Shown here: in pieces, positions 5,356 to 32,774 of the stretch
How positions within the stretch are numbered: the first letter of the stretch is position 1
How the letters are laid out: the number at the start of each line of letters is the position of its first letter
Assembly (NCBI GenBank): GCA_905250025.1
Contig: CAJNOJ010000059.1
Location: forward strand, 1 to 41,278
Reading direction: 5' to 3'
Source of the DNA: Adineta ricciae
Lineage: Eukaryota
DNA: 41,278 bases
Translations under genes and position numbers: made by a program
The notes under the pieces: generated by a model
The model's input: only the letters and a program-made list of their open reading frames with translations
What the model was told of the DNA's origin: nothing
Databases searched by the model: none

Positions 5356-6496
5356 AAATAACAGCACTATTGCGTTGTTTTTCTTAGAAAAAGACTTTAT
5401 ACCATCATCATGATCATTCATATTGAATCGATTATTTTGATGTTTATGTATTATTAATCTTTGTTCGTTTGTAAAACATTCAAAAAAGTACTTAGTTTGT
5501 TTCTTGTATGATTATGTACTTAGCACAATGCATTAACATTCAAACACGCATATGAAAATCTCTAATCTAGACATTCTTTTTTCTGCTTCTCATTTCGTAT
5601 ATGTGTGCGTCTTGTATTTGTTCAAATCTCGTGGTTTTCATTGTTTTTTTTTGTCTATAACTTGTGTTCATATGTGTGTAATTGTCGGTGTGCTTCCTCT
5701 CTATTTCTCCTCTCGTCGTCTAACATATATTTGAAAATAAAAATCTAGACGTTTTGCAACTAACAGCAAATATATCAATCTCTGGTGTCATTCAACTAGG
5801 AAGAGTTCTTATAATTAGACATCTTGCAAAGACATATTGAGTTTGTCGTCTTTGATGGTATTAGATTGCGTAGAGTGTAATAAATCTTGCTGTAATGTTA
5901 TTACATATGGTTGAAATATTTGATTGATGTTCAGGTGGTAGGTAGATGGATGACAAGCGTGAAAAAGCCTTTGATGATGAATGAGTATTAGGCTGACAAA
6001 TGAATCGTTGTCGGTGAGATTTCGATTGGGTTTGTACGTGTTCTCGTTGGATTTTAACATTTGATTTGTTGAAAACCATCGCAAGGATGAGTGGCGAATG
6101 AATAGATTTATTGCAGGACTTTGTCTCCATTGATGAAATTAGGTTGAGTTGCATCTTTTCTTGAAATTAAGGATATTTCACTAGGGGAATGCAAGTCGAG
6201 TTACTTACAGATTCGTAAAGATTTTCACCACTATATGTAGATAACGTGAAATAAAAACAATTGTGCAAGACTCTCACCGAGGGAGAGAGTAAAATGTAGA
6301 TTATTTTGTCACAATTCTTTTCTTCCTTTCTCTCGTTCTCTATTTTTGCAACGGGGTAAACTTGCACAATGTTTTGAAAAAAACGATTTCACTATTCCAA
6401 ATGCAATTCTTTTCTAAGATTGTCTACAGTTTATAAAAGCTCGTTGTTTTTTGTTCTACATAGATCATTACTGACATATTCACAGTAGTCATCGCG

Positions 6497-9400
6497 ATGA
6501 GTAAAGCAACGAGTAGTACTGAAAACATAATTGGCGCTGGTCCAGTTTATCGTATTCCACCATATCATTATATCCATGTTTTGGATCAGAATACTAATGT
6601 CACACGATTAGAAATTGGTCCGAAAACATTTATTAAACAAGACAATGAAACGGTCATTCTCGGACCGGAAAAAATGATCACAGTTCCGTATGTATTGCTG
6701 TTAAAACATCGGTATGAATATGTTTGATGATGAAATTCGTTTAGACCACGTCACTATTGTGTTGTGGAATCACCAGTGGTACGTGATGATGCAGGAGAAG
6801 TTGTATTCGACGCAAACGGTCAAGCGAAATTGATTCACGCTGATTTGGACATTCGTCTTGCTCGACCTGATCAAGCTCCATTTCCTCTATATCCCGGTGA
6901 AGTTCTTCGACAAGTATAAATTTTGAAGGATGTAATCGATCAGAATAGAAAAACCTGTTTTCTGTTTTTCCTTGCAGCCTGTTACACCATTAAAAGTTGT
7001 TCCAGCTAATTCGGCACTACGACTAAAAGCGGTGCTCGATTTTCGAGACGAAACAACCGAAGAACAACGACGCGCCGGTGATGAATGGCTGTTTGAAGGT
7101 CCAGCCACTTATATTCCTCGCAAAGAGGTCAGCGTCGAAGAACAGATTCGTGCTACTGTTATCGGCTCTAATCAAGCTATTCGGCTTTGTGCGAAAAAAG
7201 AAATAACCGATCGAAATGGCGAACGACGTGTCACCGGGGAAGAATGGCTAGTCAAGAAAACCGGTGCCTATTTACCACTTGCCTATGTATGTTTGAAAAC
7301 GAGTTTTCCTTGTTTCTTTTTATTCATGATTGGCCATTTTTTAGGAAACAGTTGTATCAGTAGAAAATGCTTATGTATTAACTGATAAGAAAGCACTTCA
7401 TCTGCGTGCATTAAAAAGTTTCACCGATAATTTCGGTAAAGAACGTATGAATGGGGAAGAATGGCTTGTCACTCATGATGATACCGAAACGCATATTCTA
7501 AGTGTCTATGAACAGTTAGTTGCTGTTGTCGATGTGGTGACATTGAATTCTCGACAATATTGTGTTATCCTCGATCCAGTCGAAGATGGAAAACCGCAAT
7601 TAGGAAAAAAAGTTCGTGAGAAAAGTTGGACTTCGTTAATCTATGAATTTGTTTCGTTTCAATTAGAAATTAGTCGTTGGTGAAAAATCATTCTTTCTTC
7701 AACCTGGTGAAAAACTCGAGAATGGCATTCAAGATGTGTACATTCTAGGTGAAGATGAAGGTATTATTCTTAAATGTATTGAAGCGTTCGAAGATGAACA
7801 AGCCAAAGCGTCCCGAAATCCAGGCGATCGATGGATGATTCGTGGCCCGACGTAAGACTTCGATTCCTTCTTTGTTCTCCAATCGATATCTATTTGCTTT
7901 CTTTTAGTGAATACATTCCACCTACACAGGTCGAAGTCGTTACACGTCGTAAAGCAATGCCATTAGATGAAAACGAAGGTATCTATGTTCGTGACATTAA
8001 AACTGGCCGCGTACGATCTGTTATTGGTGAAACTTATATGCTAACACAAGACGAAGAACTTTGGCAAAAAGAACTACCTAAACAAGTTGAGGATTTGTTA
8101 ACGCGTGATGCACTAGCCGATCGAAATATTCCAACACGCAGTCAGACATCTGACAAAAATCAGTCTCAACAGACGACCGTATCGAAATCAACGAGTGCCA
8201 AACGCGATAAATCGAAAGTAGTCGTTTATCGTGTTGCACACAATGCCTGTGTTCAAATCTATGATTACAAAGCTAAAAAAGCACGAATCATCTTCGGTCC
8301 TGAACTCGTCATGCTCGGACCTGATGAACAATTTACATTGATTTCTTTGAGCGGTTGTGTTCCAAAGAAACCCAATCAAATTCAAACACTATGTTTACTC
8401 CTCGGACCTGACTTCTTCACCGACGTCATTGTCATTGAAACAGCAGATCATGCACGCTTATCATTACAGCTTTCATATAATTGGCATTTTCAAGTAGTTG
8501 ACAGAGCCGATGCGAAAGAGTCGGACAAATTGTTCTCTGTGCCTGACTTCGTTGGCGATGCAGCTAAGGCAATTGCTTCTCGTATTCGTGGAGCTGTTGC
8601 AGGAACACAATTTGACGACTTTCACAAAAACTCTGCTCAAATTATTCGTGCCGCTGTCTTTGGTTTCGACGCGCACCAGCATGTCCGTGATCAATTCATT
8701 TTCCCACAAAATAATCTTGTTATCACATCCATTGATATCCAAAGTGTTGAACCTGTCGATCAACGAACACGAGATGCTCTTCAAAAGAGTGTTCAACTAG
8801 CCATCGAAGTAGGTAGCTTGAGTATGCTTTATTCGGTGCTCAATTTGAATGATTTAGATTACCACAAATTCACAAGAAGCTGCCGCCAAACATGAAGCTT
8901 CTCGCCGTGAACAAGAAGCGAAAGGTTTATTAGAACGTCAACGTATCAAAGACGAAGCTGACGCAGAAGAAGTTCGAAAACAACTCTTAGAGTTACAAGC
9001 TCTATCAGCTGCTGTCGAATCGACCGGTCAAGCTAAGGCAGAAGCTCAAAGTCGTGCGGAATCCGCGCGTATCGAAGGCGAAGCTGCCGTCGAACAAGGT
9101 AAAAAACGACGCAAATCTCTCATTGATGAATCTACAGTTTACTTTTTACAGCTCGCCTCAAAGCTGAAGCTACTCGAATTGAAGCTGAAGCTGAATTGTT
9201 ACGTTTAAAACTGGCACGTGAAGCTGAAATCAAATTTTTGCACGATCAAAACGAATTAGAAATTACAAAGAAAAGTGAAATGTCAAGAATTGAAACTGAA
9301 AAATTCAAATTACAAGTGGAATCGATCGGTGCAGATACTATTCAATCGATTGCTACATCAGGCCCTGATACTCAGGTTAAACTTTTACAAGCACTCGGCC

Positions 9401-9552
9401 TTCAGTCAATGTTGGTCACTGATGGACATACACCGATTAATCTAATGGGCTTTGGGCAAGGCTTACTAGGTGGTTTAACGGGAAATACGAAGAACAAATC
9501 AAGAACGTCAACAAGCACCTCGAACAACTATTGCATTCGAGAAGATGATTAA
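6497..9552 (+). CDS. MVP: Major vault protein (MVP), paralog 1, about 886 aa
   Basis: Eight exons: approx 6497-6687, 6745-6913, 6978-7286, 7345-7615, 7674-7851, 7908-8808, 8858-9098, 9152-9552. Introns are 49-64 bp. It aligns to MVP along its whole length: [143 protein letters not shown], and the C-terminal cap helix [18 protein letters not shown]. Confidence 0.92.
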
Positions 9553-10365
9553 ATGTCCAATACGATTGCTGCTGAAGCCAAGACAGTATTGCAATCTGCC
9601 CCTTTCTTTGCTCTGTCTCGTTAATGAGTTCATCCTATTCTATGAAATGTAGTATGATTTTTTTGTAAAAGTATATATATAACTAAGTAATAAAACTGAA
9701 AGTACTTCGCCATAATCTGATGCTGCATGAGAAAATATGTACGAGTGTTTACGTTTACCACCACAAGCACAAACGTATCTTGTTAATGTAACAGATTTGC
9801 TTTCGTGCATTCTCTACGCACACTCTGAATTTCTAGGAAAGTTTACAGCATGCCTGACGTACAGAAAAGAATTGGTAAAACGATAGTTAGTAAAATCGTA
9901 TGCAACTAATCCATCGACAGATGGACTGACTAGTGTAATAATTGAAAGATAAATTATTATTCCGAGGCTAAACTTATAAGTACAGTCAAACCTGCCGATA
10001 GTGAACACTAACGGGACTGTTCAAAATGTGTTCACTATCTAGAGGTCTATTTACAGCAAAATCGATCGGGTGGATTGAATCATGCATTCAGAGGGAAGGA
10101 ATTCGCTGTGGAAAGTTTTACTCTAATTACATTTAGTTGTTTTTTAGATTATCTTGTTTACATATCGGTATTCTCGACTGTATGTAGTGCTCGAGAACAA
10201 AAGAATTAATGATTTAATTTGAACTCAGTTTCATAGAATGAGCCGATGGTCGTTTATTCTTCTGAATTGATAAAAGCAAATAGTACATATAGTTTTAAAA
10301 ATTTGACAAATCTCAGTTCTACGCAGTTATATGAAAATTTCAACTCAAAAGATTTTTTCTATTTC

Positions 10366-13300
10366 CTAGGAATTGTTTGATGATCCGATTAGATCCACTG
10401 CCGTATTGAAAAGATTGATTGGACTTCGTCCATCTGTGATCAACGTTGATTTTATACCCAGAGCTTGCAGAAGTTTAACCTAAACGAAGAGCACAGGCAT
10501 TAAACACTAAAAAAGTCAACTCTTTGTCAAAGTCTTACCTGATTATCTGGTCCGCTAGTGGCTATAGCTTGAATCGTTTTTGGTCCAATGGCAGTGACAT
10601 GTTGTTTGAATTCGTCAATTTCAATCTCAGCTAATCGTTTTGTTTTCTCGATTTCTAAATCCGCTGTCTGTTTCGAATAGGATAATTCTAATTCACGTGC
10701 TTGAGTTAATCGTAAAAGTTCAATATCAGCTTCGATTTTTGCTGCTTGAGCACGAAGAGTTGCTAAAAAGACAAGAGATACATTCGATCAAATTCTAGAT
10801 GGAAAGTGAACCAACCTTGTTCGACAGCAGCTTCGCCTTCAATCTTGGCTGCTTCAGCTCGTGATTGAGCTTCGGCACGTGATTGACCAGTAGATTCAAC
10901 AGCCGAGGAGAGTGCTTGCAGTTGTAATAAATGTCGACGTGCTTTCTCAGCTATTTCAAACAAAAAAAAACTATCCATATATACGGAATAGAAAGAAGAA
11001 CTTTATTTACCTTCGGCTTCGTCCGCGATTTTCTGCCGTTCCAAGTGACCTTTCGCTTCTTGTTCGGTTCGTGAGGCCATGTGTCTATAAAAGAAAAATG
11101 TCAACTGTTGCAGTTCCTATTCATATGATTCTGCCTACTTTGCTTGAGCTTCTTGCGAGTTTGTGGTAATCTAAATCATTCAAATTAAACACCAGAACAC
11201 ACTTACTCAAACTACTCACTTCAATAGCTAGTTGGACACTCTTCTGAAGAGCATCTCGTGTTCGTTGATCGACAGGTTCAACACTTTGGATATCAATGGA
11301 GGTAAGAACGAGATTGTTTTGTGGAAATACGAGATGATGGCTGATGCGTTTATCGTCTCCAAAACCAAAGACAGCTGTTCGGATAATCTTGGCAGAATTT
11401 TTATGAAAGTCGTCAAATGAAATACTGGCGACAGCGCCACGAATCTTTGCTGCAACTGCTTTACAAAAATCACCGACAAAGTCAGGTACAGAGAATAGTT
11501 TGGCAGTTTCTTTCTCATTTGCTCTGTCAGCCACTTGAAAATGCCAGTTGTAGGATAATCGAAGTGAAAGACGAGCATGATCACTGGATTCAATAGTTAC
11601 AAAATCACTTGAGAATTCTGGTCCCAATAGTAAACAAATCGCACGAATTTTGTTGGGCACTTTCGGTTTATCGCCAGATAAATTTAATACTGTAAATTGT
11701 TCATCAGGTCCGAGCATGACGAGTTCAGGACCGAAGATGATTCGTGCTTTTTTAGCTTTGTAATCATAGATTTGAACACAGGCATTGTGTGCAACACGAT
11801 AAACGACTACTTTCGATTTATCTCTTGCTGGTACATTTGTTGATGTAGATGATTTATCTTCGAGTGATCGAGGTTCTTGTAGTAGAAGTTGTTCAACTTG
11901 TTTGGGTAAATCTTTTTCCCACAGTTCTTCGTTTTCAGTTAAGAGATAAGTACTGCCTATAACCGAACGAATTTTACCAGTTTTGACATCTCGAACATAG
12001 ATGCCTTCATTGACATCCAGTGGAATTGCTTTTCGACGAAGTACAACAGAAGCTTCAATCGCTGGAATATAATCTTTTGGGCCACGAATCATCCAGCGAT
12101 CTCCAGGACTACGTAAGATTTTCTATTCAATAGAATTTTCCATATAGATTGGAGAAATATCAATGAGGATTGACTTACTTCATCCTCTTTAAATGTTTCA
12201 GTACAACGAAGAATTAAACCTTCATCTTCTTCCAGTACATAAACGTCTTGAATGCCATTTTCTAGTTTCTCACCAGGTTGAAGAAAAAATGATGTTTCTC
12301 CCTACAGACAAAATCCAATATAAATATTGAGCTGTACTCTACACTTTCGATTAATTTACTTTTATGAGTTTTCTTTTTCCTAGTTGTGGTTTGCCATCGG
12401 AGTCAACTGGATTTACAATGATACAATACTGACGTGAATTCAATACTGTAACAGAAACAATACCGACTACCTAAAAACCATCTCCTTAGATATTTTATTA
12501 AACTAAATTCATCTATCTGTACTTCTTCATAAACATCGGGGATGTGTGTTTCGGCATCGGTAACATAGATCAACCATTCTTCTCCGTGAAGACGTTTTCG
12601 TTTGAACGAATCAACGAATGTTCCCAACGCTCGAACATGCAATGCTTTCTACACAAGGATATCAATACATAGATGAACATGAAGTTGTGAATGAAAAATT
12701 ACTTTATCGGTTAAGACGTAAGCCTGAACAATTGAAACAACTTCTTCGTAAGCTAACGGTAAGTAGGAACCATTTGTACGATTAAGCCACTCTTCACCTG
12801 TTCGTCGTTCAATACCATTACGATCAGTCATTTCTTTTTTTGCACGTAAACGAACAGCTTCATTTGGTTTGAGAATAACTGCTTTGATTTGTTCTTCAAC
12901 ACTGACCTCTTTACGTGGAAAGTAGGTTCCTGAAAAACGAATCGGTTTCGAACGATATAATGGTATGAGCTTATTTTCTCTCACCTGGCCCACAAAATAG
13001 AAATTCATCTCCAGCACGTATCTGTTGACCTAGTTCATCAACAAAATCCAATACAGCACGAAGACGTAGTGCACAGTTCGGTTCGATCACTTTTAACGGT
13101 GTTACATTTTGTTTCAGGATCTCACCTGGATAAAGTGGAAAAGGTTCTTGAGCGAAACGTATATCAACATCTGAATGTAATAATTTGATTTGACCATTGG
13201 CATCGGTCATCACTTGACCATCTTTATCACGAACAGCTGGATTTTCGACAACACAATAATGGCGAGGTCTGTCAAAATTCAACAAACGGATTGATTGCGA

Positions 13301-13561
13301 GAAAAGTAAAAGAAATTGTACAAAGATGAACATACGGTATGATTATCATTCGTTCTGGCCCATAGATAACTGTCTCATGATCTTGTTTTACGAATGTTTT
13401 CGGGCCAACTTCAATCCGCGTTACATTGGCGTTTTGATCCAAAACATGGATATAATAAAATGGTGGAATGCGATAGACTAAAATTCACAAAGCATTCATA
13501 CGAATCAACTATGAACAAGTAGAATCTTGTTACCTCCGCCGGAATGTTTAGTGTTCGACAT
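10366..13561 (-). CDS. MVP: Major vault protein (MVP), paralog 2, about 840 aa, inverted and tail-to-tail with paralog 1
   Basis: Thirteen exons on the minus strand: approx 13534-13561, 13336-13477, 12985-13268, 12703-12929, 12523-12648, 12360-12470, 12179-12301, 11220-12122, 11139-11170, 11011-11084, 10816-10950, 10539-10762, 10366-10479. Introns are 52-67 bp. The sequence is [38 protein letters not shown]...[39 protein letters not shown]...[24 protein letters not shown]. Only the VP|PRHYC intron is clearly shared with paralog 1. The intron near GE(K/T)SFF is offset by a few codons. Confidence 0.9.
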
Positions 13562-14100
13562 GACTATTCTTTGTGATTGAATCAAGTCCGTGAATGAAAG
13601 CAAATTTGCGGGGCTTTTTATTTAGGAGACGGAATGTCGACACAAGTGTGACATATTGGGGCCGAGTAGGAGAACATCAGTTTCAGGTCAATGATGAAAT
13701 CTCAAAGGAGGAATTGCACGAGCATTTTAAGAAAACAAGAAATTCTTAGATAACAATCGCGGTTTGTTTTCTTTACTAAGCTTGAAGAACGAGTAAGAAG
13801 GGGTTGGCGAGAGAGTGAATAAGAGAAGAACGACAAAAAAAGAACTATTGTATTGCAACTGAATGGAGAAATATTTAGTTGTGAAACTTGTCTTTCATTG
13901 ATAAAAGCAGTTTGACAGGAATATGATGCAATTTAAGGTCATATCACTGAAATCGATCTAAGACAGTATTTTCTTTATATTAAATAATGATTTTATTCAA
14001 CAAATTGATTCACATAAATATAAAACAATTGTTTAACGATTAAAATATCAATGAAAGATTATTCGTTGTACACAAATACTCAAAAATTCTTCTTTGAAAT

Positions 14101-21374: not shown

Positions 21375-23012
21375 ATGTCGGACGCGGCGGCAACAACAAA
21401 TGGTTTGATTTCAGAGAAATTTACGAAAATCGTTTTTTGATTTTGTTGTTCATTTTTATAGGAGTAAAGAATAAGTTTGATGGCGATGGCGTGGTATTTA
21501 AAGGCAAACTCATCGGTAGGAAGAAGAATAGATTTCTAATGCAACAAATATATTGTTCTTTTTTTGCGTTTGCTTTGCTCAATCAAGGAATGGAAGATTT
21601 ATCCATGGATCGTGACGAGAAAGTTTGTCTTGATTCAATGTTTAAGTTGAAAGCGGTAGTACGCGCTCGTGGAGAACATAAACAAAGAATTCAATTAAAT
21701 CTAACGATGAATGGAGTGAAAGTTTATGATGACACGTCGAAAGTAGGTGAATAAGAACCATTCATTATTGATAGAGATATTTTGTTTCTGTCTCAGACTT
21801 TAATTGCGTCTCATGAAGTTGAACGAGTCTCGTTCGTGGTTTTAGATCCACGTGACCAACGAGCATTTGGATATGTCTACAATACCAGCGACGATCGACA
21901 TCAATTCTGGGCAATTAAAACCGAACGACAAGCCGCTACAACTGTACTTGCCTTGAAAGAACTTTTTGAAACGGCATTTGAGGAATTTACTAAAGCAGAA
22001 AAAGAAAAAGTAAAAGCTACTTCAGAAGTAACACCTGCACCAACTCCAGTAGCAGAAGTAATTATATTCAGATGCATCTAAATTGATGAGATTCTTCAGT
22101 AACGCGCATAATATTATTGTTTCAGCAATCGACTTTGATATCTACGTCATCACCCACGACACCATCTCCTCAAGTAACAACACCACGAGTATGTATAGTC
22201 TTTCGTTATTTTTCCAATACGACCATGCGAATCTGTAGGCACCTGAAACCGATTCCATATGGGGAGATCTCACTTCGCCTGCAGCTCCAAGTGTAGCACC
22301 AGCACCTCAACAGGTACAACAACAACAACAATCAACACCTAATATCGATCTATGGGATGCAGGTGAACCCAATCTTATGGGAGGTCAGGCTGCTCAAAGT
22401 GTAAGTTCTTTTCAAATGTCATATTAGTATCATTGAGACGAAAATTTATTACATTGACAGTCTTCTGATGATATGTTTGGTTTACTTGGATCACCAACAC
22501 CATCGATACCAGCAGTCAATCAATCAATCCCGGCTGCCACTTCTCCCGCAGACGATCTATTTTCCATGTTTGCACCTGCTGCACCTGCTGCACCAGCGCC
22601 TGTCATTAGTAATACTGCCATTGCTCGACCACCACCACCACCACAACCAGCTATTATTCCCCAACAACCAAATTTACCCTTTGCTACACCCTTCGCAGGC
22701 ATTGTTCCTCAACAACAAAACTTACTCTTTTCCCAACCCGCACCTGCTGTTCCCCGACAACCGCCACCACCGCTACCACAACAGAACTTACTCTTTGCTG
22801 CACCTACGCCATTTGCCGCTCCTCAACAACTACCTCAGCAGAACTTACTCTTTTCCCAACCCGCACCTGTTGTTCCTCAACAACCATCACTACCACAACA
22901 ACAACAACAACAGCAGCCGAGCTTACTCTTAGCTACACCCGCACCTGCTACCGTTCCACCACCAGCTACCAAAGCAGTTGATGAATTCGATTTACTCGGT
23001 GACTTTGCCTAA
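21375..23012 (+). CDS. DAB: Disabled (Dab) family PTB-domain endocytic/signalling adaptor
   Basis: Seven exons: approx 21375-21402, 21462-21515, 21588-21742, 21797-22057, 22126-22188, 22239-22400, 22461-23012. The PTB domain aligns to Dab1/Dab2: VVFKGKLIG, DEKVCLDSMFKLKAVVRARGEHKQRIQLNLTMNGVKVYDD, TLIASHEVERVSFVVLDPRDQRAFGYVY...HQFWAIKTERQAATTVLALKELFE. The C-terminus is Pro/Gln-rich with repeated QQNLLFSQPAP motifs and ends DEFDLLGDFA. Confidence 0.85.
22700..22960 (+). repeat. Imperfect direct repeats of about 40-60 nt within the Dab C-terminal exon (four copies of a PQQNLLF(S/A)xPAPxVP peptide motif) plus CAA/CAG poly-Q runs
   Basis: Seen directly: aacttactcttttcccaacccgcacctg(c/t)tgttcc recurs at approx 22716 and 22842, with partial copies at approx 22785 and 22920. 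CAA runs are at approx 22316-22333 and 22896-22916. Confidence 0.65.
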
Positions 23013-31286: not shown

Positions 31287-32774
31287 ATGATCGACACCGA
31301 CAAACTACTCTTGCCTCTATCCGATGCAAAAAAGAATATTGTCTTACTGTTAAATGGATGTTTCAATCCAATACACAACAATCACATTCGTCTCTTAGAA
31401 GTCGCACGCGAACATCTAAATACGTTGGATACATATCATATCGTTGGTGGATATGTTTCTCCAACTCATGATGCCGCTATTCAACGGAAAATATCGACTA
31501 TTCATGCAACATGGCAAAATCGTCTCGAAATGTGTCGACTAGCTGTTCGAGATTCATCATGGATTATGGTAGATGGATGGTTAGTCTCGCAAGAGAGAAA
31601 TATCGGTGCTCAACAATCTAAACAGCATTTAAAAGATTTCCTGTGTAAATCTTATCCTTCGATTGAAGTTGTATCGGTATGTGGTGGTGATGCTTTACCA
31701 AAATTGAAAGTAACATTTAAAAAAGAATTGGTAATATGCGTAAATAATCGACCGATTGAAGATTTCGACTTTGACGAATGGTTTCATTCACCAGCCATCG
31801 AACAATTTCATCATAATATCATTCTCATACATGATAATCAATGTAGTAAATACATAAGTAGTACGAATATTCGTCGACGAATCAGTGAAAATCGTTTTGA
31901 TTTATTGATTGATGATCTTCATCCATCAGTGCTCGATTACCATCGTGAACAAGAAATCACTTATCGTTCGGCAGATGAAACTGTTCTTTGGTCTGAACTC
32001 GGCGGAAATGACGGTGTTGTACTTGGACAAGGTCGATGTGCGACGGTTTATCAGAAAGAATATAAACATCGACATGTTGCTGTAAAAGTTATACGGGAGC
32101 GTAGACAATTTGTGAACGAATTGAAAGTTTTAACACTATTGGCTAATGAAACATCATATCATGTAAATCTCATTGAAATATATGGCATAGGTGATCAGTT
32201 TTGTGTCATGGAAAAATGTGATATAGATCTTCTTTCATACATTGAGAAGAATCGAATGGTAAAAAGCCAGACAATAACAACAATTTTCCCAAATTCACAG
32301 TGGTTAAGTTTCATCAAACAAATGTTGACTGGATTTGTTCATTTGATTTCACTTGGCATTCTTCATCGTGATATAAAGACAGATAATATTCTCCTATCCA
32401 ATATGATTGTTAAAATATCTGATTTCAGTGTGTCAGTCAATTTGAGTTCCATGACTAAAATGCCAGTGCGAGGTTCGATGCGTCATTACCCACCGGAATC
32501 TATCAATGATAAGCAAATTTACACCGAAAAATCGGATGTTTTCATGTTTGGATGCTTACTTTATGAAATTGTTCATGGTGGACAACGCGTTTGGCATGAA
32601 GTCGACACATCTGAAGTTGTCAAGCGACGATTAAACGGTGAAAAACCATTATTTTCCGTGCAATGTGAACCATGGTATTTGGACGCGGTGACACACGATT
32701 GTTGGGCATTCAATAGTGACCAACGACCAACATTTGAACAACTATTACAGAATACATTTATACGAAATAATTAA
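31287..32774 (+). CDS. Bifunctional-looking fusion protein: N-terminal NMNAT-like (nicotinamide/nicotinate mononucleotide adenylyltransferase) nucleotidyltransferase domain fused to a C-terminal protein kinase domain; intronless, 495 aa
   Basis: Single uninterrupted ORF. Residues about 10-235 carry both nucleotidyltransferase signatures of the NMNAT family: the (H/T)xxH motif in LLNGCFNPIHNNHIRLLE and the C-terminal ISSTNIRRRI motif (compare ISSTKIRRAL in NMNAT1). Intermediate blocks are collinear (VSVCGGDALPKL, ELVICVNNRPIED, NIILIHDNQ). Residues about 240-495 are a eukaryotic protein kinase: a Gly-loop-like LGQGRCATVY, VAVKVI (beta3 Lys), HRDIKTDNILL (catalytic loop), KISDFSVS (DFG to DFS), YPPE, and a TKL-like C-lobe CWAFNSDQRPTF. 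Confidence 0.8.
   Translation: MIDTDKLLLPLSDAKKNIVLLLNGCFNPIHNNHIRLLEVAREHLNTLDTYHIVGGYVSPTHDAAIQRKISTIHATWQNRLEMCRLAVRDSSWIMVDGWLVSQERNIGAQQSKQHLKDFLCKSYPSIEVVSVCGGDALPKLKVTFKKELVICVNNRPIEDFDFDEWFHSPAIEQFHHNIILIHDNQCSKYISSTNIRRRISENRFDLLIDDLHPSVLDYHREQEITYRSADETVLWSELGGNDGVVLGQGRCATVYQKEYKHRHVAVKVIRERRQFVNELKVLTLLANETSYHVNLIEIYGIGDQFCVMEKCDIDLLSYIEKNRMVKSQTITTIFPNSQWLSFIKQMLTGFVHLISLGILHRDIKTDNILLSNMIVKISDFSVSVNLSSMTKMPVRGSMRHYPPESINDKQIYTEKSDVFMFGCLLYEIVHGGQRVWHEVDTSEVVKRRLNGEKPLFSVQCEPWYLDAVTHDCWAFNSDQRPTFEQLLQNTFIRNN

Follow-up and report, generated by a model that had tools for sequence, protein, structure and literature searches.

Recent gene conversion as the probable source of a 132-nt identical tract in two convergent, deeply diverged major vault protein genes

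A stretch of 41,278 nt of genomic DNA from Adineta ricciae (contig CAJNOJ010000059.1, positions 1 to 41,278 of the forward strand, hereafter the window) was analyzed and found to carry two genes for major vault protein (MVP) in convergent, tail-to-tail arrangement: MVP-A on the forward strand (6497-9552) and MVP-B on the reverse strand (10366-13561). The two genes share a tract of 132 nt that is identical at every position. This identity is very probably the product of interlocus gene conversion between the inverted paralogs, and the event is recent, no difference having accumulated since. Recent intrachromosomal gene conversion had been proposed in a first-pass annotation of the same DNA, and the proposal is supported here by a test of codon runs, by the differences found between the two genes in other genomes and by the incongruence between the tract and its flanks.

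The tract lies at 8206-8337 on the forward strand in MVP-A, the probable recipient, and at 11691-11822 on the reverse strand in MVP-B, the probable donor. It encodes residues 474-517 of MVP-A, mostly inside the Pfam domain Vault_3 (aa 478-539), and residues 448-491 of MVP-B, and is wholly contained within one exon in each gene. An inverted-repeat scan of positions 6000-14000 returned the two copies as arms of 132 nt, 100% complementary and 3353 nt apart, together with weaker inverted arms that trace the remainder of the two homologous genes. The pair was the only long exact repeat detected in a scan of the whole 41-kb window, and direct alignment showed that identity breaks off abruptly at both ends of the tract. 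Both the inverted-repeat scan and the alignment bear out the exact identity, silent sites included, that had been reported in the first-pass annotation; the coordinates given there were correct for MVP-A and displaced by 3 nt for MVP-B, where 11694-11825 had been stated.

MVP-A and MVP-B were compared over 839 aligned codons. Protein identity was 68%, not the ∼80% estimated earlier, and identity of the coding DNA was also 68%. Synonymous sites were saturated, with a proportion of synonymous differences (pS) of 0.71 (0.69-0.71 outside the tract) and a synonymous distance (dS) of ∼2. Inside the tract, counting by the Nei-Gojobori method gave 0/29 synonymous and 0/103 nonsynonymous differences. 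A sliding-window calculation, the check that had been suggested for the conversion claim, placed the tract as the deepest trough and an extreme outlier (pS 0 against ∼0.7), with a second trough at 8650-8930.

Codon runs were tested utilizing the 564 codon pairs in which both genes specify the same degenerate amino acid. Identical degenerate codons were found at 43/43 positions in the tract, compared with 52% outside it, and the probability of a run of this length anywhere in the gene was ∼3.5e-10 (calculated as p^n x N). In 100,000 permutations, runs of identical codons extended to 27 at most, and 0/100,000 reached the 43 observed. Chance as the origin of the codon run, for which the amino-acid conservation of the segment and nothing more can be cited, is vanishingly improbable given this run probability, the permutations and the 0/29 synonymous differences at a background pS of 0.7. 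The milder lows of pS elsewhere, at 7600-7911 and at 9062-9345, and runs of 8-9 codons were within permutation expectation (mean longest run 9.9). The tract gave no signal of GC-biased conversion: GC content at third codon positions was 0.30 in the window, 0.23-0.39 in most relatives and 0.05-0.61 overall.

The tract was compared across genomes with a set consisting of the DNA of 11 other A-type and 6 other B-type genes, obtained by look-ups and by a single metagenome scan. For 14 sequences, distance matrices were calculated in the tract and in each flank, and the tract matrix was extended to 19. Three other contigs with both genes, L010, L087 and L089, showed 21, 24 and 23 differences, respectively, between A and B inside the 132 positions, against 0 in the window. 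Between species, pS in windows covering the tract was 0.57-0.65 for A-A, 0.48-0.56 for B-B and 0.58-0.64 for A-B comparisons, no lower than in the rest of the exon. Since the identity is absent from the other pairs and between-species pS is at background, the identity is specific to the lineage of the window and does not mark a conserved nucleotide element.

The same values bear on selection acting on the nucleotide sequence itself, whether the target is an RNA element embedded in the tract, a splicing enhancer or an extreme preference for certain codons. Although the tract codes for a highly conserved protein segment and the neighboring 8698-8808 is fairly similar in nucleotides in many comparisons, such selection is highly improbable with tract pS at background between species and 21-24/132 A/B differences in three other genomes. 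Nucleotide-level constraint was rejected on the orthologous and paralogous sequences of 17 related loci. An embedded structured RNA was also rejected: nowhere in the window was the gathering score of an Rfam family attained, and the window contained no tRNAs.

Flanking sequence grouped the sequences by paralog type, with p-distances of 0.28-0.53 from A to B and mostly 0.02-0.28 within type (a range that leaves out L013, which is frameshifted, and L041, which contains an intron). Inside the tract, MVP-A of the window coincided with MVP-B of the window. Positions at which the other A-types and the other B-types are fixed for different bases were taken as diagnostic sites, and 38 of these were present in the exon. 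MVP-A of the window was in the A state at 18/19 diagnostic sites 5′ of the tract and at 17/18 sites 3′ of it, and MVP-B was in the B state at 32 of those 37 flanking sites. A crossover between inverted repeats would swap the 3′ halves of the genes; the flanks are not swapped, and the event was therefore a non-crossover.

A single diagnostic site of the 38, at 8218 on the forward strand, lies within the tract. The codon at this site specifies Leu (T or C) in 11/11 other A-types and Val (G) in 6/6 other B-types, and G is present in both copies of the window. The tract ends with DEQFT in the window and in all B-types; DEHFT is found in 9/11 A-types. On the B-type state at 8218 and the DEQFT ending, B was probably the donor and A the recipient. 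Both copies of the window further encode Ala (YRVAHN, at 8239-8241 in MVP-A and 11787-11789 in MVP-B) at a position where Pro (YRVPHN) is found in 17/17 related sequences and is invariant in 58/58 wider homologs carrying the motif. This Ala-for-Pro change is apparently a rare substitution at a conserved site that was spread by conversion, its occurrence in both copies being expected if one was copied from the other.

A second, older patch of homogenization was located across the exon 6/intron 6/exon 7 junction of MVP-A. It occupies 8690-8881 on the forward strand in MVP-A, where it takes in the last part of exon 6, all of intron 6 (8809-8857) and 24 nt at the start of exon 7, and 11147-11338 on the reverse strand in MVP-B, where it takes in the last part of exon 8, all of intron 8 (11219-11171) and the greater part of the 32-nt exon 9. 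The patch is at least 192 nt long, with 85% A/B identity over 192 ungapped nt and a pS of 0.38 against a background of 0.71. Its core is a run of 56 identical nt (8728-8783 in MVP-A and 11245-11300 in MVP-B) followed by 27 bases of which 23 match, as had been described in the first-pass annotation. Over the exon segment around this core pS was 0.33 within the genome and 0.63 between species. As independent evidence of conversion the 56-nt run was rejected, the 12/111 differences between the two genes of the window over 8698-8808 being no outlier among all pairs; the earlier reading of the run as a sign of conversion is weak for the 56 nt alone and holds for the larger patch with its homogenized intron, of which the run is a part.

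Intron 6 of MVP-A and intron 8 of MVP-B (49 nt) are 80% identical, with an alignment score of 28. Scores for all 84 pairings of MVP-A with MVP-B introns had a mean of 1.2 and a standard deviation of 5.1, and no other pair was similar. The remaining introns at shared positions (A1/B2, A4/B6 and A7/B11) had no sequence similarity and so give no evidence of conversion at those positions. The intron homogenization and the ungapped 192-nt match together identify an older conversion patch that spans exon, intron and exon, and this patch is the product of an earlier conversion that has since diverged by ∼15-20%. Homogenization of an intron cannot be accounted for by coding constraint, a further point against selection on the nucleotide sequence.

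The shared intron was also found in several other genomes. Its A/B identity within a genome was 0.80 in the window, 0.79 in L087 and 0.93 in L089, compared with 0.47-0.72 between genomes; the exception was the B-type intron of L041, whose identity to the A-type intron from a related lineage was 0.80. Both copies in L010 were without the intron, and pS over the exon segment there was 0.32 within the genome against 0.63 for A-to-B comparisons between species. The higher identity of the intron within than between genomes indicates that conversion at this junction has been recurrent across lineages.

Presence of the same intron (LAIE/ITT) was concordant in every linked pair, being in both copies of the window, L087 and L089 and in neither copy of L010. 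Such concordance would be expected if gains and losses of the intron pass from one paralog to the other by conversion. The A/B pS of exon 6 was also lower throughout in L010 (0.3-0.5) than in the window (0.65-0.97), which could reflect wider homogenization in that genome or codon usage shared within it.

The best-supported account is that conversion between A and B happened at least twice in the lineage of the window. The earlier event would have homogenized at least 192 nt over the exon 6/intron 6/exon 7 junction. For the 132-nt tract, a lesion in MVP-A exon 6 in the lineage of the window would have been repaired by homologous recombination, with the inverted B copy, 3.3 kb away on the same chromosome, serving as the template. 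Resolution would have proceeded without crossover, the likeliest route being synthesis-dependent strand annealing, or alternatively heteroduplex formation with mismatch correction, and 132 nt of B sequence would have replaced the A sequence. We infer this repair mechanism from sequence comparison, as we do the B-to-A direction, the part played by heterology where the tracts end and the connection with the frequent double-strand-break repair described in bdelloids.

The positions of the tract ends are consistent with such a role for heterology. Directly 5′ of the 132-nt tract is an indel-rich, poorly conserved linker (8110-8205, forward strand) in which MVP-A has 15 more codons than MVP-B, and at the 3′ end of the tract divergence climbs steeply. 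The shared intron and the B-specific intron 9 (11085-11138, reverse strand) are 32 nt apart, and the end of the older patch falls in this interval; the A/B-diagnostic residues, AAAK in A and AQAK in B, are kept in every genome examined. That the 132-nt tract starts right after the linker and the older patch stops before B intron 9 suggests that these heterologies limit conversion tracts.

A patch templated by a B transcript or cDNA instead of B chromosomal DNA, through break repair on an RNA or cDNA template, would yield an identical product, as the tract is inside a single exon in both genes and an intronless template would serve equally. Intron numbers of the orthologs also differ greatly, for which loss mediated by reverse transcripts may be one cause. 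This route is nevertheless considered very unlikely: the older neighboring patch holds a homogenized intron, which needs a DNA template, and the location of the two copies 3.3 kb apart on one chromosome would favor direct intrachromosomal repair.

Several points weigh against conversion from B to A as set out above. The donor direction is based on two sites, one fully and the other partly diagnostic. Before conversion, identity in the segment was probably just ∼83%, as judged from the other genomes, and recombination between sequences that are ∼83% identical is normally strongly suppressed. The 132-nt tract is also known from assembly sequence alone, and exact repeats within paralogs are a known source of polishing errors. 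The tract could in principle be an artefact of assembly or polishing, with the reads of one paralog overwriting the other or a chimera formed at the repeat, and to this we assign a small probability. The patch is just 132 nt long, and with 30-50% divergence in its flanks, B reads would not be expected to align to A; each gene keeps its own type on both sides, which is not the pattern of a mis-join or an inversion; and both genes are in frame. The older patch, with its diverged yet clearly related intron, shows genuine exchange at the locus, and the same sort of homogenization is seen in independent assemblies. Because the flanks are retained, both frames are intact and exchange at the locus is independently supported, an artefact is an unlikely source of the 132-nt tract, for which interlocus conversion is preferred.

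A more far-reaching possibility, which is tentative and rather doubtful, is that of a long-lived, position-specific hotspot, in which the R9 repeat and the shoulder/cap-helix junction with its intron would be re-homogenized independently in several lineages. The remainder of the two genes would stay saturated and the tract ends would always stop at the same heterologies. Such a pattern could arise from selection keeping the segments compatible in mixed A/B vault shells, and it could also indicate that conversion takes intron presence or absence from paralog to paralog.

The gene models were built by hand by reading the DNA directly, with vertebrate MVP sequence as a guide only. MVP-A consists of 8 exons (6497-6687, 6745-6913, 6978-7286, 7345-7611, 7667-7851, 7908-8808, 8858-9098 and 9152-9552) and encodes 887 aa in a single open frame. 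MVP-B consists of 13 exons and encodes 840 aa; exons 1-7 are at 13561-13534, 13477-13336, 13268-12985, 12929-12703, 12648-12523, 12470-12360 and 12301-12179, and exons 8-13 at 12122-11220, 11170-11139, 11084-11011, 10950-10816, 10762-10539 and 10479-10366. Introns of both genes are all GT-AG and 49-67 nt in length, and the frame is open throughout both models. The stop codons of MVP-A and MVP-B end at 9552 and 10366, respectively, leaving a spacer of 813 nt (9553-10365) between them. These models agree with the exon counts of 8 and 13 and the spacer of ∼0.8 kb in the first-pass annotation. No internal repeat was found in the spacer by the inverted-repeat and whole-window scans, and no Rfam match was obtained there.

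Both products matched the Pfam families Vault (4 stretches), Vault_2, Vault_3, Vault_4 and MVP_shoulder above cut-off. MVP-A exon 6 matched the MVP chains in the PDB with E = 5e-122 and aligned end to end with human/rat MVP residues 364-663. MVP-A and MVP-B are major vault proteins with the full domain set and intact reading frames. The ratio dN/dS between them was ∼0.14 (dN 0.29, dS ∼2.15; Nei-Gojobori). Assembly into vault particles, and co-assembly of the A and B products, are putative functions of genes that are known here from their sequence.

MVP-A has 7 introns and MVP-B has 12, with only 3-4 positions in common. Intron turnover is heavy in the MVP family, and the A-type orthologs of L001 and L010 appear to have 1-3 introns (judged from breaks between tblastn high-scoring segment pairs). 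The splice choice for MVP-A intron 4 is ambiguous between 7612-7666, giving QLGKK/KLVVGEKS, and 7625-7673. Its counterpart in MVP-B is 4 codons further 3′, which could represent intron sliding or an independent origin.

A protein search returned no exact match and two series of relatives. The first series was 80-88% identical to MVP-A and ∼64% to MVP-B; the second was ∼85% identical to MVP-B and ∼67% to MVP-A. The closest named homolog, and the only named one among the close matches, was a partial protein of Adineta steineri (CAF4350788.1, 83-87% identity), which makes a bdelloid rotifer the likely source; the other close matches were from metagenome contigs. The presence of an A-like and a B-like series places the A/B split before the divergence of all these lineages, and the split is approximately as deep as the distance from MVP-A to a brachiopod MVP (71% against 68%). 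On these comparisons MVP-A and MVP-B are best regarded as ancient paralogs that have been kept as a convergent pair.

The gene order SUN-domain gene, A forward, B reverse, TPT transporter was common to the window and contigs L010, L087 and L089, with a similar spacer, and L041 contained B plus a partial A, likewise tail to tail. The related genomes with this gene order are probably those of bdelloid rotifers. The pair was not intact in every case. L088 was without B, and its A gene abuts the TPT gene (L088 9540-10306); L001 had the left flank and A only, and L004 the right flank and B only. These incomplete pairs suggest either that a deletion and a spacer breakpoint have occurred or that duplicated regions have undergone reciprocal loss. 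The low tract distance between L001 and L004 (11/132), which may or may not come from one genome, was not used as evidence.

Two further features were recorded elsewhere in the window. A Pro/Gln/Ala-rich, low-complexity open reading frame at 22473-23012 accounts for a local rise in GC content to 0.45 and a GC skew of −0.35. Within this frame, which had no Pfam match, is a direct repeat of 71 nt (22713-22783 and 22836-22906, 85% identical). A single open reading frame of 495 aa at 31287-32774 has a cytidylyltransferase-like domain (PF01467) at residues 22-198 and a protein kinase domain (PF07714/PF00069) at residues 244-492, and this combination is predicted to be an unusual fusion.

Interlocus gene conversion is well known, with Drosophila Hsp70Aa/Ab and the arms of the human Y palindromes among the examples, and the MVP locus is a new, unusually clean case of it that involves no new mechanism. 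Conversion between adjacent inverted paralogs has been described for the inverted hsp16 modules and for hsp70-7/hsp70-8 of C. elegans (PMC3966223), and interlocus conversion has been described between Drosophila duplicates (PMC3924832). The MVP pair resembles the adjacent inverted cases in its short patches of identity in opposite orientation, the inclusion of silent sites, the non-crossover flanks and the recurrence. Unlike most reported converting pairs, the MVP partners are far more diverged (68% identity, saturated dS), and exchange is limited to two short segments, each delimited by a heterology, either an indel or an intron.

In bdelloid rotifers, tracts of identity shared by collinear homologous copies have been attributed to gene conversion during double-strand-break repair (PMC3464624). 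The MVP tract is similar in being a patch of full identity in diverged copies for which homologous break repair is proposed, and the host group is probably the same. The published bdelloid cases concern allelic copies or copies on homologous chromosomes a few percent apart, whereas the MVP case concerns ancient inverted paralogs 3.3 kb apart on the same chromosome. Bdelloid MVP genes are multi-copy, and five were over-expressed after radiation in Adineta vaga (PMC10809525). Conversion at the MVP locus may be linked to bdelloid break repair or to the radiation-induced expression of MVP genes.

What sets the MVP locus apart is the depth of divergence between the partners and the recurrence of conversion at the same junction in several genomes. 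Conversion patches of this kind can mislead the assignment of paralogs and orthologs, dating based on dS and short-read mapping of MVP genes. The locus offers a clean, datable instance of homologous repair with a paralog whose identity is ∼68% overall and probably ∼83% locally, apparently in a bdelloid; the debate over bdelloid survival without conventional sex has gene conversion and double-strand-break repair at its center.

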